Positions 24,304 to 45,725 of a DNA stretch of 52,799 bases are shown here, in pieces (position 1 is the stretch's first letter; every line of letters starts with the position of its first letter). Below the pieces are notes generated by a model. It saw only the letters and a program-made list of their open reading frames with translations. It did not search any database and had not been told where the DNA came from. Source of the stretch: Patescibacteria group bacterium (GTDB lineage: Bacteria; Patescibacteriota; Minisyncoccia; 2-02-FULL-40-12; IGHO2-01-FULL-4-A); contig JBBTSB010000011.1 of assembly GCA_038064915.1 (NCBI GenBank), forward strand, positions 1 to 52,799, read 5' to 3'. The position numbers were made by a program, and so were the translations under genes.

Positions 24304-26076
24304 ATGACCGATGCAACGACAAGCGACAGCGACATCCTCTATATCGGCAAGTCAAACTTTCGCGGATCAAGCCGGGTTTTTGGCATCAAAAATAAAGACC
24401 GGTTTCAGCACATGTATGTCATCGGCCAAACGGGCACCGGAAAAACGTCACTCTTGCGTAATCTTGCGATCCAAGATATTGAGGCCGGGCGTGGCGTCGC
24501 CGTAGTAGACCCACACGGCGAATTTGTCCAAAGCCTCTTGGCTGCGATTCCGGAACAGCGTCTCGACGATGTCATTTACTTCAATCCGATCGACACGGAT
24601 TACCCGGTTGGTTTCAATATCCTCGAGGTAAAAAATCCCGACCACAAGCATCTGGTATCTTCGGGGCTCATGTCCATTTTCACCAAAATCTGGGCAAATG
24701 TGTGGTCTGCCCGCATGGAGTACATTCTCAACAACACGGTACTTGCGCTCCTGGATACCCCGGGCACAACGCTGTTGGGCATTCCCCGCATGCTCGTGGA
24801 CAAAATTTACCGCCAATCCATCATCGACAAATGCAAGGATCCCGTCGTGCGCTCGTACTGGATCAATGAATACGAACAGTACCAGGAACGCTTCCGCACG
24901 GAAGCCATCGCCCCGATCCAAAACAAAGTCGGGCAGTTTCTTTCGACGTACCTTGTCCGCAACGTGGTCGGCCAGCCCAAAAGCACCCTGAACATCGAAC
25001 AGATCATGAATGAAGGAAAGATTTTACTTGTTAATGTCTCCAAGGGGTTGATCGGCGAAGACAACTCTGCACTCTTGGGGGCCATGCTCATCACCAAAAT
25101 CCAGCTTGCCGCCATGGAACGTGTGCGTATCGAAAAAGAATCGGAACGGCGGGATTTTTTGCTCTACGTAGATGAGTTTCAAAACTTTGCTACTGACTCG
25201 TTTGCTTCGGTACTTTCCGAAGCACGCAAATATCGCCTCGGTTTGATTATCTCCCACCAGTACATAGGACAACTTGTCACCATGGGAGCCGGCGGAATCA
25301 GCACCAAAGTCCGTGATGCGATTTTTGGCAACGTCGGCACCATGATCACATTTCGTGTCGGCGCGACTGATGCGGAATTTCTCGAAGTACAGTTCGCGCC
25401 TGATCTGGTGGCGCAGGATTTTGTGAATATTCCCAACTACAATGTCTACATGCGTCTCATGGTGGATGGATTTTCGACGCGCGCATTCTCCGCAACGACT
25501 CTTCCCCCTATCGAGCTCAAAACCACGCCGGAACAAATTAAGTACATTATCAACAATTCTCGAAAAAACTACAGCCGCCCGCGCGCGCAAGTTGAGCAGG
25601 AAATTTCCGAGTGGAGTGGCATGTCCGGACCACGCGTTCAGCCGATGCCATCCCCCATTGCCAATATGCCCGCTCCGATGTCATTTCAGTCCGGAACGCG
25701 AAGAGAAGAATACGCCGAAGGCGAAGAGGAAATCGTAAAAGTCGCGCCACCTCCGGTTGCCTATATCAAGCCCAAGTACGAAACCAACCTTCACGACATT
25801 GGTATCGATATCGGAGAAATGCAGATGCCAAAAGAAGTCATGCGCGAAGTGCCACCTGAAGTATCCTTGGGTGCCCTTGAGCGAAGCGGTCCGGATGGCC
25901 CGTCGGGTGCTCGCCGCAAACGGAAACGCAAACGCAAGCACGGCCCAGGTTTTGATCAAGGCGGCTTGCGCGAAGCTTTGGGAAGTGCAATGAACCCACA
26001 AGCGCCCGCCACCGCTGAAAGCTCCGGCGTGGCGAAAGAGGAAGAATACGACGAAGAGCCCGACCGCCACTCCTAG
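24304..26076 (+). CDS. TraD/VirD4/HerA-like P-loop ATPase
   Basis: HMYVIGQTGTGKT, VDPHGE, YVDEFQNF, SEARKY and AIFGNVGT; disordered C-terminal tail. Confidence 0.88.
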   Translation: MTDATTSDSDILYIGKSNFRGSSRVFGIKNKDRFQHMYVIGQTGTGKTSLLRNLAIQDIEAGRGVAVVDPHGEFVQSLLAAIPEQRLDDVIYFNPIDTDYPVGFNILEVKNPDHKHLVSSGLMSIFTKIWANVWSARMEYILNNTVLALLDTPGTTLLGIPRMLVDKIYRQSIIDKCKDPVVRSYWINEYEQYQERFRTEAIAPIQNKVGQFLSTYLVRNVVGQPKSTLNIEQIMNEGKILLVNVSKGLIGEDNSALLGAMLITKIQLAAMERVRIEKESERRDFLLYVDEFQNFATDSFASVLSEARKYRLGLIISHQYIGQLVTMGAGGISTKVRDAIFGNVGTMITFRVGATDAEFLEVQFAPDLVAQDFVNIPNYNVYMRLMVDGFSTRAFSATTLPPIELKTTPEQIKYIINNSRKNYSRPRAQVEQEISEWSGMSGPRVQPMPSPIANMPAPMSFQSGTRREEYAEGEEEIVKVAPPPVAYIKPKYETNLHDIGIDIGEMQMPKEVMREVPPEVSLGALERSGPDGPSGARRKRKRKRKHGPGFDQGGLREALGSAMNPQAPATAESSGVAKEEEYDEEPDRHS

Positions 26077-27686
26077 GCTATCTCTTTGTTGTAACAACTT
26101 TCACAATAGACGATCTCGGGGCGAGCAGGTGCGTATGAAGTTTCTATCTCTTTTTGGCACTTCATACAATTACGCTTCCACAGTTTCCGCGGATTTCTTC
26201 GAGCCAAACGTGTTTTCAATCGACAAGGGAAACAATAGATAGGTAAGGGCAATTTCATCTTTTTATAGAATTCTACCTCCGTAGGATGTAGTTTAAATGC
26301 CCCGACACCTACACAATCGCCATTTTCACACCCCAAGATATCTCCACCGGTTTTATATCCTTGTTTTGGTTTTTCGTACCATCGCCAGCCCTTCGCCAAA
26401 ACTTGATCCCTTGTCATGGGAAAGTAATCAAACGCGATACTATCATTGTACGGAAAAGCAGAGATCGCTACAGGAAAAAATTCACCCCATTCTTCTGTAC
26501 TCTTCATATGTGCCACAATCTTATCTTTCATCGTCTTCCATTCCTGTGGTGCATATTGTTTGTTAAATATACAATATTTTTTATTCATCATAGATACACA
26601 CCCAAGTAAATAGTCGGACGAAAACGTCAACTCTGAACAATACACATCTGATCCGGTCCACTTCTTGGAAGTACAAATATTATTTTGTCCCCAACCCGTG
26701 CCTTCAACCTCATAATCAAGCGTATTGTCATAGGCTTCAGTGAGATCCATTGAGTCCCTCGCCACCCAAGCATCTTGGCCATACTTCAAATTTTCATTTT
26801 CATAGCAATTATAAATAAAATGGGAATTCTTGTTGAACGCCATGTAGTCTCCCGTCGAATTCACAATGTGCCCACCGTGGTAGTATTTTGCTGGAAGTTG
26901 AAGCCTAAGCTTCTCCATCAAAGCATAGTTCTTTTGAGTACCTTCGACGGACCAGTCCACATTTTTTAGTCTTTTATTATATTCTTCTTTCGTAAGCTGT
27001 TCATTGAACCAGCAATAGGATTTGTTGCGGAGATTTACACATCCAAAACAGTTACTACATCCTCGCAGGTCATTTCCAAAAAAACAGTCATTGCAATCAA
27101 CAGCCGTATGGAGCCAGCCCGATTTGTAACATTTCAAACAATCGAGGCATTCATATAAAAGTTCACACTCCTTGACCGTCCAGCAATCAACACACTCTTT
27201 GCAAGTCTGATACCAATTACCATACAAACAGTATTCGTTGTTATTACTTGCCTCACACATATAGCAATTTTTGTTGTCTGATGCCTGATTAGTGTACTCG
27301 GAATTCACACTATTACTATTGGTTAAGGTGATACGAGGCACGGTAAATCGATGCACTTTATATTGCTCAAAAAACGGACGCGAGAAATCAAAATCTCTAC
27401 CGAAGTCTAGCGTATCCCATCCATCACCCCAATAGCAGCCGTGGCAATACACCGGCCCGGGATAGTCGGGATTGTAGATGCTGACCATGTTTTTACCGCA
27501 CAGCGTGCAATTCCTCTTAAAAAAATTCCACTCATTCCGATTCGCCAGTCTTCGCTGATACCTGCAATCCGGACACAATGTCGGTGTTGGTACATCAATT
27601 TTTTTGTAGAATTCTAAGTCGTCCGATGTAATCTCAAAATTCTGCGAGCAATTTTTACAGGATTTAGTCTCCATTTCCACCCGCAT
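26073..27686 (-). CDS. Cys-rich zinc-ribbon/solenoid protein, paralogue 1
   Basis: CKNC...PTLCPDCR, CxxC-x17-CxxC at both ends, NCFGCVNLRNK and GEFFP motifs. Confidence 0.88.
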   Translation of the reverse strand: MRVEMETKSCKNCSQNFEITSDDLEFYKKIDVPTPTLCPDCRYQRRLANRNEWNFFKRNCTLCGKNMVSIYNPDYPGPVYCHGCYWGDGWDTLDFGRDFDFSRPFFEQYKVHRFTVPRITLTNSNSVNSEYTNQASDNKNCYMCEASNNNEYCLYGNWYQTCKECVDCWTVKECELLYECLDCLKCYKSGWLHTAVDCNDCFFGNDLRGCSNCFGCVNLRNKSYCWFNEQLTKEEYNKRLKNVDWSVEGTQKNYALMEKLRLQLPAKYYHGGHIVNSTGDYMAFNKNSHFIYNCYENENLKYGQDAWVARDSMDLTEAYDNTLDYEVEGTGWGQNNICTSKKWTGSDVYCSELTFSSDYLLGCVSMMNKKYCIFNKQYAPQEWKTMKDKIVAHMKSTEEWGEFFPVAISAFPYNDSIAFDYFPMTRDQVLAKGWRWYEKPKQGYKTGGDILGCENGDCVGVGAFKLHPTEVEFYKKMKLPLPIYCFPCRLKTRLARRNPRKLWKRNCMKCQKEIETSYAPARPEIVYCESCYNKEIA

Positions 27687-28040: not shown

Positions 28041-28083
28041 AAAACTGCGCCCTTCGCGCCGTCCGCGGGGGTGCAGTCTTTTT
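28041..28083. terminator. Intrinsic terminator, probably bidirectional
   Basis: AAAACTGCGCCCTTCGCG-CCGTC-CGCGGGGGTGCAGT-CTTTTT between convergent genes. Confidence 0.75.
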
Positions 28084-29791
28084 ATACCGCTTCAGGATAT
28101 AGGCATTGCAGACAGTAGACAATGGGACCGCGTTGGGAGGTGAGGAATTCTGTGGGACATGGATCGGAACCGTGGAAGTGGGTGGCGAAGTTTTTGTAAA
28201 CGCCATTTGAGGATGTTGCTCCATGGCAATCGCATTTGCGCGGTTCAATAAATGCACTTGCGCGCTGGGCAATGCGCTCATTGTGTCGGCAATCAGGACA
28301 TTGACGCGGAATAGGAAGTTTTTCTTGGCGCAAAAAAGCCAGCTCCATCGGAATCACTCTATACACTTTCTGGCATTCTATGCACTCGAGAATTTCCTTT
28401 AAAATACTATCTTTCACATCCTCGATCGCATCTGGGATTTGTGTGGCGGTCATGGTGGGTTTGTGCTCACTCGGCGGCGCATCGTACCACGAGTAGCCCT
28501 TCGCAAGGGCCTGTTCTTTGGCCAATGGAAAATATTCTTGCGCAAGAGATATATTGTATGGAATAGATGAGTGGTCAATGGGAAAAAATTCTCCGTACTC
28601 ACCGTCGGCCTTCATTTTTTCAATAATCTTCGATCTCAATTGTTCATATTCCTCTTTCGTATATTGCTTGTTGAGAATACAATACCGTTTCTTTCTCAAA
28701 CCAACACATGCAAAACAATCGGCAAGATTGCGAGAAAACATACAATATTCACTACTTCTCATTTCAGACCAGCTTTCCAGGCTGAATTTACAATCACTCA
28801 TGCCATATCCACAAATAGCATTTTCATAGCAACCAACGACGTTTTGGCCCCATATGGTGAGATCGTAAGAATCCTCTGTTTTTGCGACCTGTGCGTATTG
28901 GAGATACCTACAATCTTTTGCCCCACGCACTATGTAGCCATAGTGCACATTCTTTGAATTGCTTATAAATTCCCCCGTGACATCATCATTCAGCACACCA
29001 TTGAGATAGGCAATCGGAAATTTTTCTGCAAAGGCGAATGCTTCGGCCTTGGCTTTTTGCAATCCAGACCAGGTATTAAGTCTCATCGCTGCTATTTTTT
29101 GATGGTACTCTTCTTTGGAGTAGGGCCTATTATAGATGTGATAGCTTTTATTCACCAAATTGACGCAACCAAAACAATTTGTCAGACCCTTGCTCGCGAA
29201 ACAAAACATCACCGAAGTATTGTCGATGGAACGAGAAGAAAAGTGACTTTGATAAGAATTGTGCACCCACAATGACCCATAGGAACGTTCGCACTTCGTT
29301 ACATGTGAACAATCAAAACAGGTCTTGCAAAAACTATGCTCATTACCATATGCGCAATCCTCTGATTCTCCCGAATTCGACAGCAAATAACAATTCTTGC
29401 AAAAGCCAATATTGATATTAAAATCACAGTTCACGTTTCCTTCCGTTGAACGCGCCGGCCGAGGGACCGTTTTTGCAAATTCATGCATTTGCTCAAAGAA
29501 AGGCCTTGAAAAGTCATAGTCTCGCCCATAGCTCAACGCATCCCAATCATCGCCATTCCATTCATCTTCGTCGTACACTGAAGCGCCGGATTCAGGAGGG
29601 TATAAACTTAAAATCTTTTTTCCAGACATTGCGCTCGTGTTCCAGAATGGTTTTCGATCATTGCGATACGCAAGTCGGCGCTGGAATCTGCACTTCCAGC
29701 AAAAGGTTGGAGGTGGGACGTTTATCTTTTTATAAAACTCAAAATCTTCCGGATCAATTGTAAAATCTTCATTGCAATTTTTACAAATCAT
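28082..29791 (-). CDS. Cys-rich zinc-ribbon/solenoid protein, paralogue 2
   Basis: Start MICKNC overlaps the VIT1 stop (ATGA); family motifs as in paralogue 1. Confidence 0.88.
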   Translation of the reverse strand: MICKNCNEDFTIDPEDFEFYKKINVPPPTFCWKCRFQRRLAYRNDRKPFWNTSAMSGKKILSLYPPESGASVYDEDEWNGDDWDALSYGRDYDFSRPFFEQMHEFAKTVPRPARSTEGNVNCDFNINIGFCKNCYLLSNSGESEDCAYGNEHSFCKTCFDCSHVTKCERSYGSLWVHNSYQSHFSSRSIDNTSVMFCFASKGLTNCFGCVNLVNKSYHIYNRPYSKEEYHQKIAAMRLNTWSGLQKAKAEAFAFAEKFPIAYLNGVLNDDVTGEFISNSKNVHYGYIVRGAKDCRYLQYAQVAKTEDSYDLTIWGQNVVGCYENAICGYGMSDCKFSLESWSEMRSSEYCMFSRNLADCFACVGLRKKRYCILNKQYTKEEYEQLRSKIIEKMKADGEYGEFFPIDHSSIPYNISLAQEYFPLAKEQALAKGYSWYDAPPSEHKPTMTATQIPDAIEDVKDSILKEILECIECQKVYRVIPMELAFLRQEKLPIPRQCPDCRHNERIAQRASAFIEPRKCDCHGATSSNGVYKNFATHFHGSDPCPTEFLTSQRGPIVYCLQCLYPEAV

Positions 29792-30504
29792 ACAATGCTT
29801 TGCACAAATCCGCCTATGAGAAACGCGGCGCCAGCGGCGAGACCGCCTACGAGCAGCATTTCCAGGCCGGAGCGGAACCATTTTTGGTTGATCACCAGCG
29901 AGCGCGAAGCTCCAACGACAAACAGAGAAATCGCAGTGGCGATGATGGACACGGTAAATTGTGATGCGGTCGGTACTCCGAAAACATACGGAATGAGTGG
30001 AAGCATACCGGCAATGAGAAACGCAACAAAAGTCACCAAGCCGTGCATAGCCGGCTTGTCATTGGGGTCTTCAAAAATATTGAGTTCTTCGCGCATCATA
30101 AAATCCACCCAGCGTTTTTTGTCTGAAATGATATCATTTACAAATACCGTAGCATGCTCTCCGCGAATCCCCCATCGTTCCACAATGTCCTCGACTTCCT
30201 TCTTTTCTTCAACGGGAAACTTCTCTACCTCGTACACCTCGCGTTCCCGCTCACGTGCCTCAAAAGATTTTTTGGAACGGAGTGAGAGAAAATTGGAAAG
30301 TCCCATGGAAATACCATCGCCTACCAGATTTGCCAAGCCCAATATGATGATCACGTGAGTCGGAAGTCCGGCTCCCACTGCACCTGAAACAACCGCAAAC
30401 GTTGTGATAATTCCGTCATTTGCCCCATACACAAAATCGGCAAGGTATTCGCCCTCGCTCTTTGCATGAAACATTTCGCTATGCGCTTGTGGAAAGGTTT
30501 TCAT
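29788..30504 (-). CDS. VIT1/CCC1-family Fe/Mn transporter
   Basis: DFVYGANDGIITTFAVVSG, ANLVGDGISMG and MMREEL motifs. Confidence 0.93.
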   Translation of the reverse strand: MKTFPQAHSEMFHAKSEGEYLADFVYGANDGIITTFAVVSGAVGAGLPTHVIIILGLANLVGDGISMGLSNFLSLRSKKSFEAREREREVYEVEKFPVEEKKEVEDIVERWGIRGEHATVFVNDIISDKKRWVDFMMREELNIFEDPNDKPAMHGLVTFVAFLIAGMLPLIPYVFGVPTASQFTVSIIATAISLFVVGASRSLVINQKWFRSGLEMLLVGGLAAGAAFLIGGFVQSIV

Positions 30505-30794
30505 GGTGATCTCCTATACAGCATTGTAACGTAACTCGTGATTTCTCGGTAGTCAACATGTTGGAGCTTGCTGGCGTTGGTGTGTTGAAGCATGAGCGTA
30601 TTGGTAGCTTGCCAATTCTGCATAGATTTGAGAAAAACAACTATCGTTTCCGGAGAGTCCAGGTGATCACTTGCAAACCGCAGAATTGTTTCGTAGTTGT
30701 ATTCTCGCATAGCTTCAAGTGTCTCTCGATCTTTCTGTTCTGAAACAGATTTTCTCATAGTAAATCTGATCATCAGTGTAAATCGTGAACTCAA
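30501..30794 (-). CDS. Hypothetical protein
   Basis: ORF with 4-nt overlaps at both ends. Confidence 0.5.
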   Translation of the reverse strand: MSSRFTLMIRFTMRKSVSEQKDRETLEAMREYNYETILRFASDHLDSPETIVVFLKSMQNWQATNTLMLQHTNASKLQHVDYREITSYVTMLYRRSP

Positions 30795-31087
30795 TCTTGC
30801 ATTTCTGACAATATTTCATGTTCGGTTGTCTGTTGTTTCTGATCCTGTTTTCCTTTTAGTTCTTTCAGTATGTGCTCCGCGACGGTGCCGGATTTTCTGC
30901 GGGTTCCTCCGGGCAACAGCTCTATTCCAATTTTTGCGTTGAACGCAACCAGCAATGAAAGCACGAAAAAACACTTCAATGCCGCACGTCGCGTGCCGGA
31001 AGATCGTTCAAAGCGACGTTCCTCCTCCTGCAATACATCAGGAAAAGATTTTTTTCGCTCTGGTGATGGTGGTAAATCAAAATTCAT
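30791..31087 (-). CDS. Hypothetical protein with one hydrophobic segment
   Basis: Overlapping ORF within the operon. Confidence 0.5.
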   Translation of the reverse strand: MNFDLPPSPERKKSFPDVLQEEERRFERSSGTRRAALKCFFVLSLLVAFNAKIGIELLPGGTRRKSGTVAEHILKELKGKQDQKQQTTEHEILSEMQD

Positions 31088-31271
31088 GTTGTAGTTCTAT
31101 AATGCGTGCAAATGCTTCGGTATCTCCAGCAGCAATGGCTGTTTTTTTTTCGAGGTAGTTATCGAGGAGTATTTGCTTCTTCGTTTCGTCGTAGCCAACA
31201 AACGCGCGAAATTCTTCGGCAATTTCGAGTGGTAGTTCCGCAAGTAATTGTTCCCAAGCATCAATGGCCAT
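31077..31271 (-). CDS. Small acidic hypothetical protein
   Basis: Overlaps neighbours on both sides. Confidence 0.55.
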   Translation of the reverse strand: MAIDAWEQLLAELPLEIAEEFRAFVGYDETKKQILLDNYLEKKTAIAAGDTEAFARIIELQHEF

Positions 31272-33794: not shown

Positions 33795-33834
33795 TATACG
33801 CCGAATTTATATAAAGTTATCCACCTTTCAAACG

Positions 33835-33877
33835 AAATAGGGGGCGGAGCGGCTCTCGCGAGTCCACTCCACCCCCT
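33835..33877 (-). terminator. Intrinsic terminator
   Basis: Minus strand AGGGGGTGGAGTGGACTC-GCGA-GAGCCGCTCCGCCCCCT-ATTT. Confidence 0.65.
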
Positions 33878-33883
33878 CGGAAC

Positions 33884-35816: not shown

Positions 35817-36333
35817 TTTCTACTCTGATAATCCCCTGCGTATTTTTGTTGACCAAATATCCTTTTCTGTTATCCATCACTATGGTAGTGGCAAATTTTT
35901 TTTCATCCACATATTTTTGTAAGAGAGATCGACTCAAATCACCCGAAAGAATAAGCTTGTCAGATTTTTCGACCACTGCCAATAGTTCTTTGGTGAGAAC
36001 AGTTTCAGCATTTTTGATAAACAGTACGTGCTTATTGTTGGGCGCAAATTCAGAGAAAGTCTTTTGGGCAAGCTCTGTATTGCCGCTTTCTATGCTGACA
36101 ATATCTTTGTCGTTTTTTCGATCACCAATTTGCTCTTCAAACAGCAACCGAGCCTGCGACTTGAGACTATAAAAAACCACCGGCAAACCCTGCAATGCAA
36201 GCGAGGAAATCAAACTCACTGAAAAAAACGATGTACCCGATCCCTCTGCTCCAGAAATCAGCATAGGCAAAAAAGATACATCAAAATGGACTTCTCGTTC
36301 CTTGTTGTTTTCGGTGAGATAAAATTTGGTCAC
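35809..36333 (-). CDS. Hypothetical protein (possible degenerate P-loop fold)
   Basis: LISGAEGSGTS resembles a Walker A lacking Lys; overlaps both neighbours. Confidence 0.55.
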   Translation of the reverse strand: MTKFYLTENNKEREVHFDVSFLPMLISGAEGSGTSFFSVSLISSLALQGLPVVFYSLKSQARLLFEEQIGDRKNDKDIVSIESGNTELAQKTFSEFAPNNKHVLFIKNAETVLTKELLAVVEKSDKLILSGDLSRSLLQKYVDEKKFATTIVMDNRKGYLVNKNTQGIIRVENE

Positions 36334-37166
36334 TATTTTGTGTTACGATCTTTTAATTTCTTAATGGTCGGACTTCCAAGCAACGATTGCATTTGAGAAA
36401 TAGCAATTTGATTTAGTTGCATCAGTCGTTGTGATTGAGAAATTCCCTGTTTAATGAGCTCGGCATTGATGCCCTCAAGATTCGCAAGCACAACAAGTTG
36501 TGTCACATCGGCATAGTCTCGAATATTGCCATCTTTACTTGGATTTGCATCTCTCCACGTTTTGGCGGTTTTACCGAACAAGGCCATATTGAGTACGTCA
36601 GCTTCGGTCGCATAGATGATATTTATTAATTGCTTTGAAAGTTGTAGCGGAATCAAGTGTTCTTTAATTGCATCCGTATGGATTTTGTAGTTGATCTTCG
36701 CAAGCGTACGCTTCATATCCCAACCCAATACCAAACGCTGATTTTCTTCCTCCTTCAGGCGCTGAAATTCCTTAATGAGGAATAGCTTGAATTCGGCGCT
36801 GATCCAACTTGCAAATTCAAACGCGATATCTTTGTGAGCAAAGGTTCCGCCACCGTACCTGCCTGATTTTGAAACCAATCCGATGGCATGGGTGGTTTCT
36901 ATCCATTTTTGAGGGGAGAGGACAAAGCTATTACTTCCAGCTTCATTTTTAAACCCGTCGAATTCGACCAGGTTAAAATGCGGGTTATTGATTTTCTCCC
37001 ATAAACCAAGAAATTCGATAGCACTGCGAGATCGCATCCAATTTTTTACCACTTCAGCAGGAAATTCCTTGTTTTTTAGCTTCGCGATATCCGTAAGTGA
37101 GATAAAATCCCCCTGATCCTTGGGCAAAATATAGATTTGGATGCCCTTGGTAACGATTTTCTTCAT
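36333..37166 (-). CDS. KilA-N domain DNA-binding protein
   Basis: DFISLTDIAK, LGLWEKINNP, SKSGRYGGGTFAHKDIAFEFASWISAEFKL. Confidence 0.9.
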   Translation of the reverse strand: MKKIVTKGIQIYILPKDQGDFISLTDIAKLKNKEFPAEVVKNWMRSRSAIEFLGLWEKINNPHFNLVEFDGFKNEAGSNSFVLSPQKWIETTHAIGLVSKSGRYGGGTFAHKDIAFEFASWISAEFKLFLIKEFQRLKEEENQRLVLGWDMKRTLAKINYKIHTDAIKEHLIPLQLSKQLINIIYATEADVLNMALFGKTAKTWRDANPSKDGNIRDYADVTQLVVLANLEGINAELIKQGISQSQRLMQLNQIAISQMQSLLGSPTIKKLKDRNTK

Positions 37167-38737
37167 AGTATTTCTGATTGATAGCAACTCTCACAATACA
37201 CAATTTCCGGTCGGTCTGGCGAATAACTTGTCTCTATGTCCTTACCACACTTTGCGCAGGTACGCGAATAAATGGCAATAGGATTGAGTTTGCGGATGCG
37301 GGCGCGATCGCGGCAAAGCGGACAACGATCAGGTTTTGAGAGGTGAAACCTCTCAAGGAATTGGATTTCTTTGCCAATGAGCTGATAGTTTCTTCCGCAG
37401 TCGCGACATGCGAGCAAATCTCCGCTTGCGGGCTTATACTCGCGCTTATCTTCATCGCGCCACGAGAAACCCTGTGCAAGCGCCTGCTCTTTGGTCAACG
37501 GCGTCAAATATTCACCGGCATGGGTTTCATTGTAGGCCCACGGGCTTAATTTGGCCGGAAAAAATTCCCCGTACTCACCCGCCTTTGTCATTTGTAATTT
37601 GATATTTGAAATTGTCGCGAAGTATTCTTCGGGACTATACTGCTTATTCAGAATACAGTATTCCCCTTTTCGCAGTCCAACACAGCCAAATAAATTTCCC
37701 CCGCCATGACACCCGTAGCAATACTCCAAATTATGTGCTTCGTAGTTCCAAAAAGAAAATTTTATGTTGTTTGAGTTGAGTCCCACCCAGCAACATTCAT
37801 AGATCCATTCAGCGTTAAACGAAAACGATGTGTAGTCATAGGCATTTTTGGTATTGAGCGCCTGCAAAAATTGTCCGTAGCGAATATCCTCTCCCGTATC
37901 CACCCAGTAGGAGTTTCTTACGTTTTTGGAATTCCAAATGTAATCTCCGCTGACATTTTGGTTTTTATGTCCATGGAACTGCCTGCGCGGCTGTGTGAGA
38001 AAAAATGCTTTAGCTTTCTTGATATCAAATTCTTTGATTCGCTTTTCGTATTCTTCTTTGGAAAACTGCTCATTGTAGATGCAATAGCTTTTTTTCCGTA
38101 AATTGATACAACCATAGCAATTTGAACAGCCAACAAGATCTCGTGAATACCACACATCATGGCAATCACTGCAATCCTGTGAAAAAAATACTTGATAGCA
38201 ATGCTCGAGATTGACGCTTTCATAGCAAAGCTCCGCGTAATTGCTCCACGAAACATCAAAGCAATTTTTCATGTGTGAACACGAATTGCAATATCCGCAT
38301 TCTTCAGCGCGATCAAATTTGAAACACAAATAGCAACTTTTGCAATCGCTCGCGCCGTTGCAGTACTCGCTATCAATCATCGTAGAGTATTGCGTTTGCA
38401 AGGCCGGCTTGGGAACTGCTTTAAATAATTCGCCCCATTGCTCAAAAAACGGCCGAGAAAAATCATAATCACGCCCATATGATTTTGGGTCCCACGAATC
38501 TGAATGCCATTCTTTTTGTGGCATGATGGCATGTCCCGAGTCGGGATGCCAAAATGTGATCATTCCATCGCGCTTATACAAAATCCGATACCCAAACCAC
38601 GCCATACGCCTCCGCATCCGACACTCCGGGCACCATGTCGGCGGTGGGACGTGGATGGTTTCATAAAACGAAAAATCGTCCGGGTCGATGGTGAATGAGG
38701 AGGAGCAATTTTTGCAGGTCTTTATTTCACTTTCCAT
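37163..38737 (-). CDS. Cys-rich zinc-ribbon/solenoid protein, paralogue 4
   Basis: MESEIKTCKNC start; family motifs. Confidence 0.9.
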   Translation of the reverse strand: MESEIKTCKNCSSSFTIDPDDFSFYETIHVPPPTWCPECRMRRRMAWFGYRILYKRDGMITFWHPDSGHAIMPQKEWHSDSWDPKSYGRDYDFSRPFFEQWGELFKAVPKPALQTQYSTMIDSEYCNGASDCKSCYLCFKFDRAEECGYCNSCSHMKNCFDVSWSNYAELCYESVNLEHCYQVFFSQDCSDCHDVWYSRDLVGCSNCYGCINLRKKSYCIYNEQFSKEEYEKRIKEFDIKKAKAFFLTQPRRQFHGHKNQNVSGDYIWNSKNVRNSYWVDTGEDIRYGQFLQALNTKNAYDYTSFSFNAEWIYECCWVGLNSNNIKFSFWNYEAHNLEYCYGCHGGGNLFGCVGLRKGEYCILNKQYSPEEYFATISNIKLQMTKAGEYGEFFPAKLSPWAYNETHAGEYLTPLTKEQALAQGFSWRDEDKREYKPASGDLLACRDCGRNYQLIGKEIQFLERFHLSKPDRCPLCRDRARIRKLNPIAIYSRTCAKCGKDIETSYSPDRPEIVYCESCYQSEIL

Positions 38738-39767
38738 TATTCCTTCCCTGTGCTTCATATAACAAACGAGACAGGAGGTCCACGAATTCCTCCACTCCGG
38801 CTTCTTTCATGCGTTGCTGCGCAGAATCGCCCAAACCTTGGCCGATTTCCCCGATGACCCTCTGGAGTGCGCCATATACCTTCATGCGCGCGTTTTCAAA
38901 ACTTCCAAGAAAATCCTCAACACTACCGTTTACTTGTTCACCATAGGAAAAAGCTTTTTTACCACCATCATCTTTATTTATATTCAGACTAAACTTTGCA
39001 TACTGTGACCCGCTGATCATGGTCAATCTGCCCCTTTCTTTCTTGGAAATATGCATAGCTTGATCCGCGATTTTGAATGCCTCCTCGAAGGATGGTTTTT
39101 TCAAATCATCCCTATGAATCAACACACAACCAACACTAATGGTCGGCGATGTTACGTCGCCGGCAATAGGAGCGCTGATTTCCCCAGCAATGCGAGCAAT
39201 GATATTGGTAACATCTTCTTGCGTGACATTGGAGAGAAGAATGATAAATTCATCTCCACTTTTTCGAATGCCGATATCATTGTTACGAAGATGAGTTTTG
39301 ACGATTTTCCCAACATTCTGCAGAAGTAAGTCTCCAACGTCGTGACCCTTGGTATCATTGACCTGCTTGAAATAGTCCAGATCAAAAGCAACCAGAGCTG
39401 AAGCTCTCCCCGATTCGTTTTCGGCAATGCTTTTTTCGTAAAACTCTTTAATGCGTCCGGGTTTGAACAATCCGGTCAATTCATCAGTGTGTCCGAGGAG
39501 TTTTTCATCGACGGCTTTGATGATTTCATCAGAAAAAAACCCTCCGTCAGAGAAAACCTTGACGGTGTCTCGAGCAAGTTTCCGCAAAACCGGTTCGGCA
39601 AGATTCGGATTCGTCTTCTTTAAGCCTCCGTACGCCGAGTCGGCGGCTCTCGCCAAAATTCTACGCGTTTCCGTACGGATCATGCCCGAAAGCATTTCGG
39701 CCACGGCTCCGTTTTGTTTTTCGGGGGTTTTGCGCTGAATTGAGTATTCTGATGTTTTTTCTGTCAT
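38727..39767 (-). CDS. GGDEF-domain protein (SGDEF variant)
   Basis: TDELTGL, DLDYFKQVNDTKGHDVGD, RKSGDEF, ISVG and ADQAM motifs. Confidence 0.88.
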   Translation of the reverse strand: MTEKTSEYSIQRKTPEKQNGAVAEMLSGMIRTETRRILARAADSAYGGLKKTNPNLAEPVLRKLARDTVKVFSDGGFFSDEIIKAVDEKLLGHTDELTGLFKPGRIKEFYEKSIAENESGRASALVAFDLDYFKQVNDTKGHDVGDLLLQNVGKIVKTHLRNNDIGIRKSGDEFIILLSNVTQEDVTNIIARIAGEISAPIAGDVTSPTISVGCVLIHRDDLKKPSFEEAFKIADQAMHISKKERGRLTMISGSQYAKFSLNINKDDGGKKAFSYGEQVNGSVEDFLGSFENARMKVYGALQRVIGEIGQGLGDSAQQRMKEAGVEEFVDLLSRLLYEAQGRNNGK

Positions 39768-39872: not shown

Positions 39873-41612
39873 TCATGCAATTTCTTGCTGATAGCAGCGT
39901 TCACAGTACACGATTTTGGGATCATCAGTTGGATAGACTGATTGAATTTGTTTTCCGCATTTCATACATTCTCGCTCAAAAAACTTGAGTATGACGGGAC
40001 CGAATTTTCGTCTATAATTTTCCAGGCGAACCGACGGATGAATTTGTGGCAACGGAATATTGAACCTGCGATAAAATTGCAGTTCTTGGTTCGTAAAACG
40101 AAATTTTTTGTTATTGACAGTATCTAAAACCACTTCTTGTAAAATACTATCCTTAACATCGCGGATGTCCGTCGGCAAATCTTCTGCATTGATGCTCGCA
40201 CTGATCGTATCTTGGCTGCTCTCGGGAATATCTTCAACGCGATAGCCATACTTTTTTGCCGTTTCAATATCATCATATCCACTGAAGGCGTTTGCCATGC
40301 AAATGTTGTAGGGTGCTTGGGTATACTCCGGTGGGAAAAACTCCCCATATTCTCCTCGCTTTAGCATGGCAGTTTTCAGCTCATCAATTTTTACCCAGTA
40401 TTCTTGTTCGGTATATTGTTTGTTGAATATGCAAAACGACTTATTTTTCAGTCCTTCGCAGGCGAAACAATTGATGCAGTTGGTACAATTTTCACAAAAC
40501 TCAAGTTCCCGTGACGATTGATTCCAAAAGCAAAACTTGAGGCTAAAGTTTTTATTTCCGCCAAATGATTCGTAGCAAAATTGCGTATCCATACCACCTT
40601 CAAGATCCATGGAATCCCGTACGGTCAAACCTCCTATAGAATACGCCACATTTTCACAGCCAATCATGTAGAAACAGCCGTAGCAATTTTTACAGTCTTT
40701 GATGAAGTCACCAAAGGAATTGATGCTGCGATCATTATGGTTTTCTTTGTAGATGGCCTTCGCCTTAAGTTTTTCTAGCTCGCCTTTCCATTTTGCAACT
40801 TCATCACGATTACCAAGATTGATTGATTTCATTTTGTCACGATAACCTTCTTTGCTCAATTGCTCATTCATAAAACAGTATTTCTTGTGACGCAGATTCA
40901 CACTGCAAAAACATGACTCGCAATCTCGACAATCATAGAGAAACGCACAATCAATGCATTCGACAGCAAAATCCGCATATCGGCATCGATACAGGTTCGT
41001 TCCTTCCAAACAATCATAGCTTTGCGAACAGTTGAATAAGGTAAACCCTTCCATGCATTCTCGCGTCTGGAAAAAACCCATTCCGTATGCAGAGTCCTCC
41101 ACCCCGACGGAATCCAGGATTAAGTAGCAATTTTTCAAATCACGCGATGAGTTGTTATAGTCACTGTTGACTATTTTTCCTCGAATGGTGAGGTTGGGGT
41201 GAGGTAGATTGAGTTGAAATTGATGGTATTGCTCAAAGAACGATTTGCCAGGATCACACGAAAAAGCAAACGCAAAGGGATCCCATTGCTCTCCATAAAA
41301 AGACTCATGCTCATAGATTTTGTAGGGACTGCCGGGAGGGAACATGGAAATGATTCGTTTGCCCGTTAGCGTTGAAGTAGCGTGGAAGAGATGGTATGCA
41401 TTCTGTTGAGCTATTCTCCGTCGAATGCGCTCATGTGGCGTAATCGTTGGCAAGGGCACCTGCATTTTTTTGTAAAATTCTATGTCCTCCGGCCTCACAT
41501 AAAACCTTTCACCCGAAAATCGGCATGTCCGCCACTGCCCGCCTTTTTCATCGAGCTCGAGCTTTGAGAAATATTCGGCAATAGCTTTGTCAAATTGTGG
41601 TGTTTTACTCAT
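39873..41612 (-). CDS. Cys-rich zinc-ribbon/solenoid protein, paralogue 5 (divergent N-terminus)
   Basis: WRTCRFSGERF, CFCSVNLRHK, YGEFFP and C-terminal CMKC-x17-CERC. Confidence 0.88.
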   Translation of the reverse strand: MSKTPQFDKAIAEYFSKLELDEKGGQWRTCRFSGERFYVRPEDIEFYKKMQVPLPTITPHERIRRRIAQQNAYHLFHATSTLTGKRIISMFPPGSPYKIYEHESFYGEQWDPFAFAFSCDPGKSFFEQYHQFQLNLPHPNLTIRGKIVNSDYNNSSRDLKNCYLILDSVGVEDSAYGMGFFQTRECMEGFTLFNCSQSYDCLEGTNLYRCRYADFAVECIDCAFLYDCRDCESCFCSVNLRHKKYCFMNEQLSKEGYRDKMKSINLGNRDEVAKWKGELEKLKAKAIYKENHNDRSINSFGDFIKDCKNCYGCFYMIGCENVAYSIGGLTVRDSMDLEGGMDTQFCYESFGGNKNFSLKFCFWNQSSRELEFCENCTNCINCFACEGLKNKSFCIFNKQYTEQEYWVKIDELKTAMLKRGEYGEFFPPEYTQAPYNICMANAFSGYDDIETAKKYGYRVEDIPESSQDTISASINAEDLPTDIRDVKDSILQEVVLDTVNNKKFRFTNQELQFYRRFNIPLPQIHPSVRLENYRRKFGPVILKFFERECMKCGKQIQSVYPTDDPKIVYCERCYQQEIA

Positions 41613-43282
41613 GCGATTTCATTAGCATAGCATTCCCCGCAGTATATTACTTCCGGTCGTTCGGGGGCATAGCTGGTTTGGATCGGAGCCTGGCACTTCA
41701 TGCATTGTCGATCATACAATCGGGGCGGGTTGATTTGGGCAAGGCGAGCCATGTGACGGCAGTCGGGACAGTAGCGTGGAATCGGAAAGCCCCACAGGCG
41801 TAGCAAATTTAACTCCATGTGAATAAGACGAAATGGCTTGCCGCATTTCCCACAGCCAAGCACTTCATCAAGAATTGAGTCTTGTATATCATGGATCGAG
41901 TCAGGGATTTGATCGGCATTCATAGTAATTTTGTGCGATGACGGAGTCGGATCTCGCCATTTCCAGCCTGCCTGCGCAGGCAGGCCTTTTGCGAGCACCT
42001 CTTCTTTTGTCATCGGAAAATACTGAATCGCCTGTGATTCATTGTATGCAAATGGACTTAAATCATACGGCAAAAAATCTCCGTATTCTGGCATGTTAGC
42101 TACAATGTGATCTCTTAATTTTTTATACTCGTCTGGTGTATATTGTTTATTAAGTATTCTATATTTTTTCTTTTTTAAATTAATGCAAGCAAACGTATTT
42201 TTGCAACCCGTGTTGTACATAGAGTACTCGACGTCACTTGTGTCTTTCCATGCTCCAGCGCAGTATCTGATATTACTTCCGCCCTCACCAACAGTCATAC
42301 TATCCACCACACGCTCGGCGCCGTTTCCCCATTCGGTGAGATCATAGCAATCTTTGACGGGTTTCATGGTAATAAACTGGCAGTAGCGCGAATCTTCTAC
42401 TTCGTTTACTTGAAAGCAATTTAAGGCGTTCTTGGCATTAAAGACATAGTCCCCCGTTGAGTTCAAGTTCTGGAGGCTACCCTCCATGTAGCGATAGGGA
42501 TGTTTGGCCCAAAATTCATGTGCCTTAGCCTGAGCTTGTCGAAGGCCGGACCATGTATGAAGTTCAAAACTTTTGAGCTTTTCCGCATATTCCTCTTTCG
42601 AGTACGGCTCGTTGAAAATATAGTAACTCTTGCCACGTAAGTTCACGCAACCAAAGCAATTATTGCACCCAATCATGTATCTCGAGAACAAAACATCTGT
42701 ACATTTTTCCATGGTGTTTGAAAATGCACACTTGTATGAGTTGATATTTATGCATTCATATAAAAGTTGTCCATCAGCACAAAGTTGCACGTCCATGGAA
42801 TCTTTTGTACGAATCACCACAGTGGAATACGCAACATTTTCATTGAAATCTGCATTGAAAATCAGATAGCAATTTTTGCAACTGCCCAAATGATTTGCAT
42901 AGTCGCTGTTGATGAGCGTCGCATAGTCGGTGACGAGACCCATGTGCGGCGTGATTTTCTGGAGCTCCTTCATCTGCTCAAAAATATGTTTGTTGGGATC
43001 GTAGTCCAAAAAAAACGCTCCATCATCCCAGTCATCCGACCACCAGCATTTCGGACAATAGACGATGAGATGCTTTTCGGGAGCATGGATTGTGACCATA
43101 TCTTTTCCGCACAGATCGCAATTGCGCTTGTACAACACTCTCTCATTCCGGAACATGAGCCGTTTTTGAAATCGGCAAGGTGGACAATACCTAGGCGTCG
43201 GCACATCCATGTGTCGGTAAAAATCTTGATCCTGCTGATCAATAATGAACAACTGCTTGCAATTTTTGCAGTTATTTTCCAA
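41609..43282 (-). CDS. Cys-rich zinc-ribbon/solenoid protein, paralogue 6
   Basis: Probable TTG start at LENNCKNC; family motifs. Confidence 0.85.
   Translation of the reverse strand: MENNCKNCKQLFIIDQQDQDFYRHMDVPTPRYCPPCRFQKRLMFRNERVLYKRNCDLCGKDMVTIHAPEKHLIVYCPKCWWSDDWDDGAFFLDYDPNKHIFEQMKELQKITPHMGLVTDYATLINSDYANHLGSCKNCYLIFNADFNENVAYSTVVIRTKDSMDVQLCADGQLLYECININSYKCAFSNTMEKCTDVLFSRYMIGCNNCFGCVNLRGKSYYIFNEPYSKEEYAEKLKSFELHTWSGLRQAQAKAHEFWAKHPYRYMEGSLQNLNSTGDYVFNAKNALNCFQVNEVEDSRYCQFITMKPVKDCYDLTEWGNGAERVVDSMTVGEGGSNIRYCAGAWKDTSDVEYSMYNTGCKNTFACINLKKKKYRILNKQYTPDEYKKLRDHIVANMPEYGDFLPYDLSPFAYNESQAIQYFPMTKEEVLAKGLPAQAGWKWRDPTPSSHKITMNADQIPDSIHDIQDSILDEVLGCGKCGKPFRLIHMELNLLRLWGFPIPRYCPDCRHMARLAQINPPRLYDRQCMKCQAPIQTSYAPERPEVIYCGECYANEIA
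41966..41985. repeat. Perfect 20-bp palindrome inserted in frame
   Basis: GCCTGCCTGCGCAGGCAGGC adds LPAQAG, which the paralogues lack. Confidence 0.85.
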
Positions 43283-44000
43283 ATGCCTTGAGGATTTCCA
43301 ACGGAATCGTAAACACGACCGTGTTTGACTGGTCAGAGCTGATGTCGTTGATAGATTGCAAGGTGCGGAGGTGCAACGCGCCGGGAGAGTTTGCGAGAAT
43401 TTGCGCTGCATGGGCGATGTTTTGGGCGGCGGCGACTTCCCCTTCGGAGTTGATGATGACCGCGCGGCGCTCACGTTCTGCCTCGGCTTGCTTGGCAATC
43501 GTGCGTTCCATGTTTTCGGGTAATACGATATCTTTGAGTTCTACGTTGTTCACTTTCACGCCCCACGGATCGGTGGCAACGTCGACAACGGAACGGATAC
43601 GCTCGGAGACATGTTCGCGCTGACTCAACAACTGGTCCAGCTCCACTTCACCGACGGCATTGCGCATGGTGGTCTGCGCGAGCTGGGAAACGGCATAAAA
43701 ATAATCTTCAACTTCCAAGATCGCAAGCGATGCATCAGCAATACGATAGTAGATAACCGCGTTCACGCCCACGGAAATGTTGTCCTTGGTAATGGCTTTT
43801 TGCTCCGGCACATCAACTGCTTTGACACGCATGTCCACTTTTTTCATGCCCTGAAAAATGGGCAAAACAATGCGCCATCCCGGACCCTTCACGCCACTAA
43901 AACGACCCATAGTAAACATCACCCCACGCTCATACTGGTTGACCTGACGCAAACTGATGAGAATCACGAACAATACAATACCAACTATAATGTATGGCAT
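43272..44000 (-). CDS. SPFH/band 7 (stomatin/slipin) family protein
   Basis: QYERGV, ITKDNISV, AQTTMR, DPWGVKV and QAEAERERRA motifs. Confidence 0.93.
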   Translation of the reverse strand: MPYIIVGIVLFVILISLRQVNQYERGVMFTMGRFSGVKGPGWRIVLPIFQGMKKVDMRVKAVDVPEQKAITKDNISVGVNAVIYYRIADASLAILEVEDYFYAVSQLAQTTMRNAVGEVELDQLLSQREHVSERIRSVVDVATDPWGVKVNNVELKDIVLPENMERTIAKQAEAERERRAVIINSEGEVAAAQNIAHAAQILANSPGALHLRTLQSINDISSDQSNTVVFTIPLEILKAFGK

Positions 44001-44027: not shown

Positions 44028-45725
44028 TTAAAGAATTTGTCTTTGATAGCATAATTCGCAGTATACATGGGAAAACTCAGTTTTCAAGTATACGGTGTTG
44101 GTTTCCTGATGACAAGAACTGCATTGTCGCGTATAGATCTGCCGGTGATCACTGATAAAACGCAATCGCCGGCGATGACGCTCAAACGGCGCCTCGTGAG
44201 GTATGGGCAAACCGAATCGCCGATAGAATTCCAGTTCCATGGGTATGATCCGATAGGGTTTGCCGGAACTCTCACAGCGGAGGACTTCGCCGATAATCTC
44301 GTCGCTTACATCAGAAATATCGTCTGGGACAACCATAAGCGTAGGAGGTATCTGATCTCGCACAAGAGGCTCATGCCTCGATGGAAAATATTCTTGAGCA
44401 ACCGTCTCGTGATATCCAAACGGCGAAAGTTCAAACGGAAAAAATTCCCCATAGCGATAGACGTGCCCTTTGCGATCGGTAAATGGCATCTCATTCATGT
44501 GGGCGATAATTTTCGCCTGCGGGGCAACGACATTTTTCGTTACATAATGGCGCTGCTGGAGGATCAACTCATGGTATTCACTTGGCGAATACTGCTTGTT
44601 GAGGATACAGTATGACTTGTCGCGCAAATTTATGCACCCAAAGCAGTTGTGACAATTCGAAAGCAGATATGAGTATTGAATATCGCGAGAACCACGCAAC
44701 ATCCCCGCTGAAAACATAATATGAAAAAGCTTTTCGGCACCGCCCATGACCTCATAGAGCAATTCGCCGTTCCAAATAGATGTGACGTCCATGGCGTCAC
44801 GCATTTCCTTTAAAAACATGCCGTATGAAACATGTTCGCTTTTATCGACTGCCGTGCAATGCAGACAATCTTTCGACTCGCGAATCACCTGACCGCTGAC
44901 ATTCGAAGATTGTTCGGTAAACAGCGCCCGCTGGGGGGTGACGTGCCAGAGAGCGTGGGCCTGGAGTCGGAGCGAAGCAAGTGATTTGTGGGAACTGAAC
45001 GGATGATCGACGAGAAACTGCTCATATTCTTCTTTCGATACGGGTTTATTGAATATGTGGTACTGCTTGTGCCGAAGACCGCTGCATCCAATGATATTGG
45101 AGCAGTCACGACAATCGAAGGAAAAATACGTATCACGGCAATCGAAGCAGAGAATGGAAAACCACGTTTTGTAGCAGTTTTCGCAAAACGTAGATTCATA
45201 GCAAAATTCGGAGTTTTGCAACCAGTAGTTGTCAAAACAATCACGGCATTTCAAGAGGTACTGGTTGTAGGCACAATCTTCGTTCAGGTGGCCACCGACG
45301 TTCAGGTAGCAGTTTTTCGCATCAAGCTCGTAGTTTACCCAGGGGCTATTGACCGTATTCTGCTGGAATAGCGAAAGGTGAGGAATGGATTGCTGGAGGT
45401 GGAGCCACTGCTCAAAAAACGGTTTTTTGAAATCATACGGACGGCCATAGTCCATCGGATCCCACCGATCGGAAAAAAAACAATCCGGACAGTAGACCTG
45501 AAGGTCCCGCTCCGGAGAATACATCGAAATTACGCTTTTGCGACAGAGGTCGCACGAACGCTTGTAGAGTGTCCGCTCGTTGCGGAACGCCAGCCTCCTC
45601 TGGAGGCGGCAATTGGGACAAAACGTCGGATGTGGGACATTGATGCGACGATAAAAACGGGCGTCCTCATCGCTGATGTGAAACGGCCTCTGACAGTTTT
45701 GGCACATAATACCTGCGGATTTCAT
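44028..45725 (-). CDS. Cys-rich zinc-ribbon/solenoid protein, paralogue 7
   Basis: CQNC...CPNCR...RNERTLYKR; family motifs (start may instead be 45707). Confidence 0.88.
   Translation of the reverse strand: MKSAGIMCQNCQRPFHISDEDARFYRRINVPHPTFCPNCRLQRRLAFRNERTLYKRSCDLCRKSVISMYSPERDLQVYCPDCFFSDRWDPMDYGRPYDFKKPFFEQWLHLQQSIPHLSLFQQNTVNSPWVNYELDAKNCYLNVGGHLNEDCAYNQYLLKCRDCFDNYWLQNSEFCYESTFCENCYKTWFSILCFDCRDTYFSFDCRDCSNIIGCSGLRHKQYHIFNKPVSKEEYEQFLVDHPFSSHKSLASLRLQAHALWHVTPQRALFTEQSSNVSGQVIRESKDCLHCTAVDKSEHVSYGMFLKEMRDAMDVTSIWNGELLYEVMGGAEKLFHIMFSAGMLRGSRDIQYSYLLSNCHNCFGCINLRDKSYCILNKQYSPSEYHELILQQRHYVTKNVVAPQAKIIAHMNEMPFTDRKGHVYRYGEFFPFELSPFGYHETVAQEYFPSRHEPLVRDQIPPTLMVVPDDISDVSDEIIGEVLRCESSGKPYRIIPMELEFYRRFGLPIPHEAPFERHRRRLRFISDHRQIYTRQCSSCHQETNTVYLKTEFSHVYCELCYQRQIL

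Follow-up and report, generated by a model that had tools for sequence, protein, structure and literature searches.

The question raised by this locus is what a bacterium with a 751-kb genome gains by spending 3.4% of it on 15 old paralogs of one cysteine-rich protein, an investment that suggests something important to its lifestyle. Seven of these genes (F1 to F7, Table 1) form an array at positions 26073-45725 of the window, a term used here for the whole 52,799-nucleotide stretch of contig JBBTSB010000011.1 (Patescibacteria group bacterium, assembly GCA_038064915.1) that was analysed. Although its members number in the thousands, the family lacks a Pfam or NCBIfam model of its core, a close solved structure and a proposed function. 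The reading that we favour, although tentatively, is that its members are cytoplasmic, zinc-stabilised solenoids that act as clients, either cargo or adaptors, of one clade of VirD4/HerA-like ATPases (the A3 clade), with the contact and the role suggested by gene co-occurrence and adjacency.

The array and its protein family

The array comprises seven co-oriented open reading frames (ORFs) on the minus strand, which in their longest forms encode 528-629 amino acids (aa). The seven copies were alignable end to end, with 34-43% identity to the first sequence and a mean column identity of 46%, and each of them matched the family profile at an E-value between 1e-238 and 1e-260, a similarity far beyond chance. 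With 31-39 Cys per copy (5.4-7.4%), they are the co-oriented Cys-rich paralogs that an initial annotation of this DNA had described. Family genes account for 11,925 of the 19,653 bases of the array. The longest ORFs of F2 and F6 extend over their upstream neighbours, and their true starts are likely the downstream TTG and ATG codons given in Table 1; after this correction, all seven copies measure 528-579 aa, in keeping with the earlier estimate of about 530-580 aa. The overlapping stop and start codons noted previously were likewise found, with an overlap of 4 bp at the family-family junction F2/F3 (between 41609 and 41612), of 8 bp between a 174-aa P-loop ORF and F5 (start 35816), of 11-32 bp at the junctions with the GGDEF and Band 7 genes, and an ATGA overlap of the VIT1 stop with the F6 start at 29791. 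The convergent genes F7 and A1, the latter encoding an ATPase, overlap by 4 bp (26073-26076). Rfam and ARAGORN scans detected nothing within the array.

The family proteins showed neither a signal peptide nor a membrane segment. Statistics were obtained for 480 members aligned to the family profile (F5 numbering throughout). The first CxxC motif was located no more than 20 residues from the start in 427 members, and a 19-residue window exceeding 1.6 on the Kyte-Doolittle scale was present in just 5, which upholds the initial view of soluble proteins devoid of signal peptides. The whole genome (750,809 bp, 95.3% complete) carries 15 copies on five contigs, with a combined length of 25,209 bp (3.36%).

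In a word-indexed search, at least 7,988 of the 8,000 clusters scored belonged to the family. When 1.84 billion representatives were searched exhaustively with the profile, 5,636 clusters (counted at 50% identity) had E≤0.001 and 2,361 had E≤1e-30. The source names shown were all "hypothetical", except for one generic Joint Genome Institute zinc-ribbon label (P0107), so the proteins are indeed, as the initial annotation had suggested, common unannotated products of the candidate phyla radiation (CPR). The records came from Paceibacteria-type lineages (Nomura-, Staskawicz-, Lipton- and Giovannonibacteria), Peregrinibacteria and Abawacabacteria, and the family is confined to Patescibacteria/CPR. 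One locus (L027) is labelled Burkholderiales yet shows a CPR-typical context (ATPase, DnaJ, four family copies), and its bin label is probably wrong. The sequencing runs listed were all performed on groundwater-metagenome DNA, none of them on RNA. Searches of the ESM Atlas (with the whole protein, and with the core against named clusters only) returned unnamed CPR clusters and nothing else.

Copies and their clustering were counted across genomes with a family profile, the approach put forward in the initial annotation. Four of the 41 close relatives carried the family, with 15, 25, 26 and 9 profile matches, some of which are fragments (the congeners contribute the 25-26 each). Across the phylum, sampled evenly, it was present in 20 of 401 genomes (sampled species) and in 19 of 320 genera. 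The 79 loci collected from other genomes contained 224 family ORFs, almost always co-oriented; two or more lay within about 10 kb in 55 of these loci, with a maximum of nine. No informative domain fusion was retrieved in a fusion search, and the only two longer proteins (1,727 and 1,114 aa) were taken as concatenated copies because of their length and full query coverage. Short forms were mostly fragments on short contigs. The family was not described in the literature covered by a full-text search, with subscription journals and supplements (e.g. lists of CPR-enriched families) beyond its reach; in the same literature, the building blocks are known, but no account was found of their combination, of the Cys pattern across the family or of the ATPase link.

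Putative zinc modules and solenoid core

The AlphaFold2 model of F5, based on a 59-sequence alignment, reached a predicted local distance difference test (pLDDT) score of 81.4 and a predicted template modelling (pTM) score of 0.86. The core was modelled as the solenoid expected from the sequence, with beta-helices and beta-rolls as its only structural neighbours (Z≤4.7). For the N-terminal module alone (first 115 residues), the pLDDT was 94.2. Profile-profile comparison with hhalign matched the N-terminal to the C-terminal module with a probability of 99.7% (E 2e-26) and the first solenoid half (residues 116-255) to the second (256-400) with 99.9% (E 2.4e-36), as opposed to 2% for a control comparison of the N-terminal module with the first half. 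The proteins therefore follow the plan zinc module-solenoid-solenoid-linker-zinc module, with two internal duplications. Each gene would give rise to a soluble cytoplasmic protein in which two beta-solenoids and a short acidic linker domain are enclosed by zinc modules, each composed of a CxxC-x24-CxxC treble clef, an Arg-rich helix and a CxxC-x17-CxxC ribbon. The full protein would contain four structural Zn(Cys)4 sites, while the approximately 20 remaining Cys would line the inside of two narrow solenoids and bind no metal. The idea of a metal store thereby gives way to a concrete architecture, a double solenoid with a Cys/Ser ladder and four zinc sites.

The ends are better conserved family-wide (entropy 1.8) than the solenoid halves (2.2-2.4). 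They carry net charges of +3.3 and +3.8, the solenoid halves -3.5 each and the whole protein -4.5 on average. Invariant or near-invariant Arg residues (R37, R41, R480, R496) are located in the helix after the treble clef in both zinc modules.

The terminal cysteines are kept or lost as whole quartets. Site 1 (C5/8/33/36) was complete in 447 of the 480 members and site 4 (C498/501/519/522) in 463. Site 2 (C55/58/76/79) was complete in 284 and wholly absent from 65, with correlations of 0.98-1.0 among three of its ligands and a complete fraction of 0.18 expected under independence, and site 3 (C441/451/476/479) was complete in 373, with correlations of 0.71-0.93. Vanished sites carry Ser, Thr, Asp or Glu. 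Sites 2 and 4 share the exact spacing of the zf_Tbcl_2 domain (C55/C58-x17-C76/C79 and C498/C501-x17-C519/C522), whereas sites 1 and 3 gave weak matches to PF13451 (zf_Tbcl). PF23477 (zf_Tbcl_2) matched 34 of 59 members (E≤0.1, best E 5.5e-9), although the window copies stayed below the curated cut-offs, with 19.2-26.8 bits against a Pfam cut-off of 27 and, for NCBIfam TIGR04272, 13.7-22.6 bits against 36. PF13451 weakly matched the N-terminal CxxC-x24-CxxC module in two of the seven copies (21.8 and 19.3 bits against a cut-off of 24), and it matched 7 of 59 relatives. These weak matches were confined to the ends, and no Pfam or NCBIfam model covered the core. Domains of the zf_Tbcl type consist of 37-48 residues, alone or in tandem, whereas the zinc modules of the family make up about 170 of roughly 550 residues and surround a core of 320 residues without any model. 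Small Methanosarcina mazei proteins with the CxxC-x17-CxxC domain type were reported, in the part of the source consulted, to bind zinc as determined by inductively coupled plasma mass spectrometry (PMC12704099). Judged from the unit-wise behaviour of the quartets and from these measurements on a related domain, the ends of the family proteins very likely bind metal, as four Cys4 sites that are probably occupied by zinc.

The core cysteines behave differently from those of the ends. Core Cys columns contained 28-95% Cys, exchanged for Ser, Val, Ile, Leu, Ala or Thr; pairwise correlations did not exceed 0.58, and the number of core Cys ranged from 9 to 37 per protein. The best-conserved core motif, CxxCxxCxxC at residues 203-212, was complete in 313 of the 480 members, where independence predicts a fraction of 0.62, and it was intact in 3 of the 15 copies of the source genome; the equivalent motif of the second half, which is a duplicate of the first, carries Ser and Leu instead of two of the four Cys. 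Metallothionein-like clusters of Cys ligands are not found in the core. Because the approximately 20 core Cys vary independently and are swapped with Ser, Val and Leu, they look like an internal Cys/Ser/Val packing ladder and not like an iron-sulfur (Fe-S) or metal-store site.

The metal binding initially suggested for the proteins thus stands for their ends but not for the solenoid. That the latter binds many metal ions or Fe-S clusters, as a metal store or redox buffer, is now highly unlikely. The 31-39 Cys per protein, the CxxC spacing of many core Cys and the presence of genes for VIT1, Nramp and MsrA inside the array (VIT1 and Nramp being also found in the arrays of both congeners, at 68-82% identity) would fit such a function, and the lowest model confidence, at residues 150-220 of the solenoid (pLDDT 62-67), could reflect a missing cofactor. 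However, core Cys give way to Ser, Val, Ile, Leu and Ala rather than His or Asp and are kept or lost one by one; no Fe-S or ferredoxin Pfam model matched any of the 59 members at E≤0.1, and none of the 16 neighbour clusters most frequent in the 79 loci was one of metal transporters.

Comparisons of the fold agreed in type but were weak in score. Foldseek retrieved nothing from the PDB at E≤0.001 for the whole model or the N-terminal module, and its weak top rows were of the beta-helix/solenoid type, as were those of VIA-align, in which the core was closest to 3ult_B (Z 4.7, root-mean-square deviation 2.5, 99 aligned), LpxD (4.1), GlmU (3.8) and 1ezg (2.4). As scores of a predicted model, they indicate a solenoid-like arrangement and demonstrate no relationship. 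Narrow beta-solenoids (LpxA/LpxD/GlmU, the Lolium ice-binding protein 3ult and the Tenebrio antifreeze protein 1ezg) were nevertheless the sole fold neighbours of the core, and Cys in the family are spaced three or six positions apart. An internal Cys ladder is also a feature of the Tenebrio protein. All scores, however, fall within the range that the tool calls a common arrangement, and the family proteins differ in being cytoplasmic and zinc-capped, with two solenoids per protein, closed by a helix. Left-handed beta-helix transferases reached only Z 3.4-4.1; hexapeptide Pfam models gave no match (E≤1 for the seven copies, E≤0.1 for 59 members), and no acyltransferase motif was present. In a wide VIA-align search, the N-terminal module reached at best Z 3.9, with generic treble-clef and zinc-ribbon rows (CsfB 2.7, TraR 2.3), so that a functional reading from these rows was dropped. 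A PDB sequence-profile search with the seven copies produced LIM-type zinc-finger noise alone (E 0.011-0.22).

Association with VirD4/HerA-like ATPases

When the neighbours of the family in the 79 loci were clustered, an ATPase emerged as the top partner, with 36 ORFs in 24 loci, a link that the initial annotation had not made. Of these ORFs, 25 lay no more than 200 bp from a family gene, often directly upstream and co-oriented. At least two settings recur, namely a sigma-like gene followed by protein D, the ATPase and the array, and an array between two ATPase genes flanked by DnaK and DnaJ. In the source genome, one paralog (A1) adjoins the array studied here, and a second, A3 (495 aa), is located on its own contig (C3, 69430-70914). 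Orthologs of A3 with at least 82% identity were found in exactly the four family-bearing genomes among the 41 relatives, while the other 37 reached 40-48%; A3 adjoins the arrays of the family-bearing relatives, and in one congener (G001) a single array spans from A3 to A1. The short ATPases beside the family in distant lineages were 64-80% identical to A3 in 19 of 20 cases, the twentieth reaching 42%. In the phylum sample, A3-like genes (E≤1e-150) were present in 14 of 401 genomes, that is in 13 of 20 family carriers versus 1 of 381 others. The co-occurring genomes belong to at least 11 GTDB families, and several of the genes lie 98-272 bp upstream of a family gene. This tie between one ATPase clade and the family appears to be new, as far as the literature search reaches.

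A1 and A3 match TrwB_AAD_bind, DUF87 and TraG-D_C, like the orphan homologues of VirD4-like coupling proteins known from Patescibacteria. A1 scored 49.3 bits with PF10412 (cut-off 20.5) and 23.3 bits with PF02534 (20.1), and the short ATPase in L036 scored 28.4 bits with TrwB_AAD_bind (20.5). The P-loop of A1 lies about 45 residues from the start, as read from the translation. From type IV coupling proteins (VirD4/TrwB), A3 differs in lacking an N-terminal membrane anchor (none of its 19-residue windows exceeds 1.6), and no match to the VirB4 channel model PF03135 was obtained here. A search of the PDB by sequence gave no relative of A3 at E≤0.01. One long ATPase that was tested contains the same type of CxxC-x17-CxxC ribbon as the family (PF23477, 3.1e-12; hhalign probability to the family 79.7%). 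A1 matched, at 1e-59, the C-terminal half (positions 384-805) of phrog_5156, an 824-position profile of unknown function; phages, too, thus carry relatives of this type of ATPase. A third paralog of 818 aa with an N-terminal membrane anchor is shared by most relatives (G000 contig C2, 11250-13706; L081, 2251-4707).

A survey of 2,918 Patescibacteria genomes reported 5,713 VirD4-like homologues, just 148 of them near virB4, and described them as non-essential in one cultured strain and possibly exapted; in the sections consulted, no partner is named and the question is acknowledged as open (PMC12102498). A distinct clade of these orphan ATPases would thus provide the solenoids with a testable partner and, if the link holds, open a route to how some CPR bacteria handle DNA, hosts or phages. 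Under the favoured reading, the family would be the client of a dedicated, soluble, hexameric FtsK/HerA/VirD4-like ATPase clade (A3), whose housekeeping paralog A1 borders the array on the opposite side. The zinc ends, conserved and positively charged, would serve as a common docking or handling element for the ATPase, and the variable acidic solenoid bodies of the old subfamilies would confer different specificities. The solenoids may be either cargo that the ATPase passes to a membrane partner or interchangeable adaptors; cargo is favoured because there are many family proteins per motor, and an intracellular role because zinc solenoids are stable and no channel is known.

Several observations weigh against this client model. 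A1 is present in all 41 relatives, with or without the family, so its adjacency could reflect an insertion hot spot. Fisher's test on the co-occurrence of A3-like genes with the family (1.2e-18) ignores kinship, and the cut-off of 1e-150 was our own choice, set from the comparison of the 41 relatives before the phylum was counted; at this cut-off, 7 of the 20 family carriers lack an A3-like gene. Six Peregrinibacteria/Abawacabacteria loci (L043, L048, L052, L059, L068, L079) contain no ATPase within 10 kb. The search for VirB4 with PF03135 gave no match in the 95.3%-complete genome, which leaves cargo without a known channel, and zinc-stabilised solenoids are poor candidates for export that depends on unfolding. 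The solenoid part of the F5 model is of moderate confidence only (pLDDT 62-75), and the arrays also contain toxin-antitoxin-like and defence-candidate genes in the style of flexible islands. The predicted complex of A3 (residues 1-470) with F5 scored 0.00, a value that gives no verdict on binding in either direction.

FtsK/HerA/VirD4-type ATPases are DNA motors, and pentapeptide-repeat beta-helices act as DNA mimics. With A1 closing a pilus operon and the solenoid halves being acidic (-3.5 each), the solenoid might regulate a DNA-translocating motor (A1 or A3) at the end of the pilus/competence operon, acting as a DNA mimic or plug; it would then control DNA uptake instead of being transported. 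This is the least probable of the explanations considered, as the solenoids are only modestly acidic, pentapeptide-repeat and other DNA-mimic families gave no match, the regulator of a single motor would hardly need 15-26 copies per genome, and nothing found here indicates that A1 or A3 moves DNA.

A more far-reaching version of the client model, distinctly unlikely at present, is that the solenoids, together with the ATPase of the A3 clade, constitute a previously unrecognised system for transport or targeting that is specific to the CPR, in which the motor and adjoining small membrane proteins would handle 10-25 old, zinc-capped cargoes that are possibly delivered to a host. Large paralog families beside FtsK-like secretion ATPases are familiar from PE/PPE proteins with the ESX ATPase EccC and from LXG/Esx proteins with EssC. 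The arrays resemble these systems in their diverged paralogs, in a conserved handling element joined to a variable body and in their position beside an ATPase of the FtsK/HerA superfamily; they differ in that there is no relation in sequence or fold, in that the family consists of zinc-folded solenoids, and in that only genes were read here. If such a system existed, it would represent a PE/PPE-like effector family for ultra-small epibionts and give the "exapted" coupling-protein homologues a role.

Further genes accompany the ATPases. Protein D, of about 430 aa, has a single predicted membrane segment and belongs to no Pfam family; it occurs in 40 of the 41 relatives and, in the source genome, in the stretch that extends to A3 (G000 C3, 65443-70914; L080, 3444-8918). 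In relatives without the Cys-rich family it stands directly beside an A1-type ATPase, and D and the ATPase look like a conserved two-gene module. In Nomurabacteria-type loci (L002, L016, L027, L036, L046, L061, L062, L065, L066, L074), the arrays and two ATPase paralogs are situated between dnaK and dnaJ, in the order PaaX-like, DnaK, x, long ATPase, family copies, short ATPase, DnaJ, family copy. DnaK and DnaJ neighboured the family in 17 and 12 loci, respectively, but always together with ATPase genes, for which reason a chaperone link was set aside as probable clade synteny.

Turnover and gene content of the arrays

In a maximum-likelihood tree of 480 sequences, all 15 copies of the source genome formed singleton lineages, each with its nearest neighbour in a different genome. 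Hence the repertoire is either old or acquired and does not stem from a recent burst, and recent duplication in situ was ruled out. Between congeners, the position of the array is kept while its content turns over; recognisable orthologs exist for some copies only (F2 82%, F4 60-61%, F7 63%, F1 58%, F6 52%), and the neighbouring genes of congeneric arrays are 78-82% identical. The proteins may still be variable recognition proteins, as the initial annotation had also proposed: the solenoid is less conserved than the ends across the family, but eight ortholog pairs diverged across all domains, with no hypervariability specific to the solenoid.

Such turnover would also be expected if the family proteins were autonomous nucleic-acid binders or sensors, such as regulators or anti-phage factors, in a flexible island, with the ATPase merely marking an insertion hot spot. 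We consider this rather unlikely. In its favour, the zinc modules are net positive and contain the invariant or near-invariant Arg residues, and a gene matching the defence candidate PDC-S22 (8.6e-133) is interleaved with the copies. Toxin-antitoxin-like small ORFs, identified from their N-terminal sequence only, occur between copies in L009, L014 and L068, which suggests that the arrays are flexible islands; the family is patchily distributed (in 4 of the 41 relatives and in 20 of the 401 genomes sampled across the phylum), and a TrmB-type regulator lies divergently upstream of the first copy in five Peregrinibacteria/Abawacabacteria loci. The whole protein is, however, net negative, the paralogs are old lineages rather than the result of recent diversification, and the ortholog pairs lack localised hypervariability. 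PADLOC 2.0 contained no family matching the Cys-rich protein (3 of the 7 copies scanned, E≤0.01), and a single partial copy, at a contig end, was found in 2.9 million viral contigs; the only PHROG match was a weak one to phrog_15341, of unknown function (3.4e-5). Autonomous binding would, in addition, leave unexplained why the family is tracked by a separate conserved ATPase clade with 64-80% identity across lineages, which the client model accommodates.

The toxin-antitoxin-like ORFs are of the ribbon-helix-helix plus PIN, AbiE-like and RelE-like types, as judged from their first residues (L009, 7465-8134 and 13833-14228; L014, 11820-13215; L068, 19482-20071). The TrmB-family helix-turn-helix regulators (about 250 aa; L043, L052, L059, L068 and L079, at about 9000-10000 each) are candidate regulators of the arrays.

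Table 1. Coordinates of the family copies, of A1 and of the genes interleaved in the array, in window positions
Feature	Position	Strand	Remarks
F1	44028..45725	-	565 aa, 31 Cys; zinc site 3 degenerate
F2	41609..43498	-	longest ORF 629 aa; likely start TTG 43282 (557 aa); four Cys4 sites intact
F3	39873..41612	-	579 aa; zinc sites 1, 2 and 3 gone; only C-terminal CxxC-x17-CxxC left
F4	37163..38758	-	531 aa; alternative start ATG 38737; zinc site 2 gone
F5	34230..35816	-	528 aa, 39 Cys; most canonical copy; structure-model target
F6	28082..29881	-	longest ORF 599 aa; likely start ATG 29791 (569 aa); zinc site 2 gone
F7	26073..27686	-	537 aa, 37 Cys; stop overlaps stop of convergent ATPase gene A1
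A1	24304..26076	+	590 aa; soluble VirD4/TrwB/HerA-like P-loop ATPase; TrwB_AAD_bind 4.6e-13, DUF87 5.2e-9
P-loop ORF	35809..36333	-	174 aa; weak matches to PADLOC mad8 (E 0.0062) and Pfam CbiA (0.0039)
KilA-N protein	36333..37187	-	Pfam KilA-N 1e-18; PADLOC candidate PDC-S22 8.6e-133; PHROG transcriptional regulator 1.4e-57
GGDEF diguanylate-cyclase-type protein	38727..39767	-	Pfam GGDEF 6.4e-30; interleaved in array
SPFH/Band 7 protein	43272..44000	-	Pfam Band_7 7.9e-39; interleaved in array
VIT1 iron/manganese transporter	29788-30504	-	Pfam VIT1 5.2e-64; interleaved in array
MsrA	31261-31728	-	Pfam PMSR 8.6e-41; interleaved in array
Nramp	31747-32976	-	Pfam Nramp 3.8e-79; interleaved in array

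In F6, most core Cys are replaced by Ser, Val, Leu or Asn. The mad8 model that was weakly matched by the P-loop ORF was also matched by A1, at 4.5e-14, and this ORF, which weakly resembles the N-terminal part of the ATPase, may be a truncated A-type gene. An ortholog of the KilA-N protein with 81% identity is present in the congeneric array of G002. Two gaps in the array, 30505-31260 (756 bp) and 33795-34229 (435 bp), contain no ORF of at least 100 aa on the array strand and no Rfam match.

The region before the array (13461-24301) encodes a TrmB-type regulator (13461-14303) and a nitroreductase-like ORF, followed by a complete type IV pilus operon with genes for a seven-transmembrane histidine kinase, a PilB-like ATPase fused to a receiver domain, a second PilB/T-like ATPase, PilC, three prepilin-type proteins (one with LVIVD repeats) and a 127-aa ORF without a family. 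The last gene of this operon is A1, which converges on the array. At positions 14001-16000, across this nitroreductase-like ORF and the first part of the histidine kinase gene, the GC content falls to 0.354, compared to 0.43-0.52 in the rest of the window.

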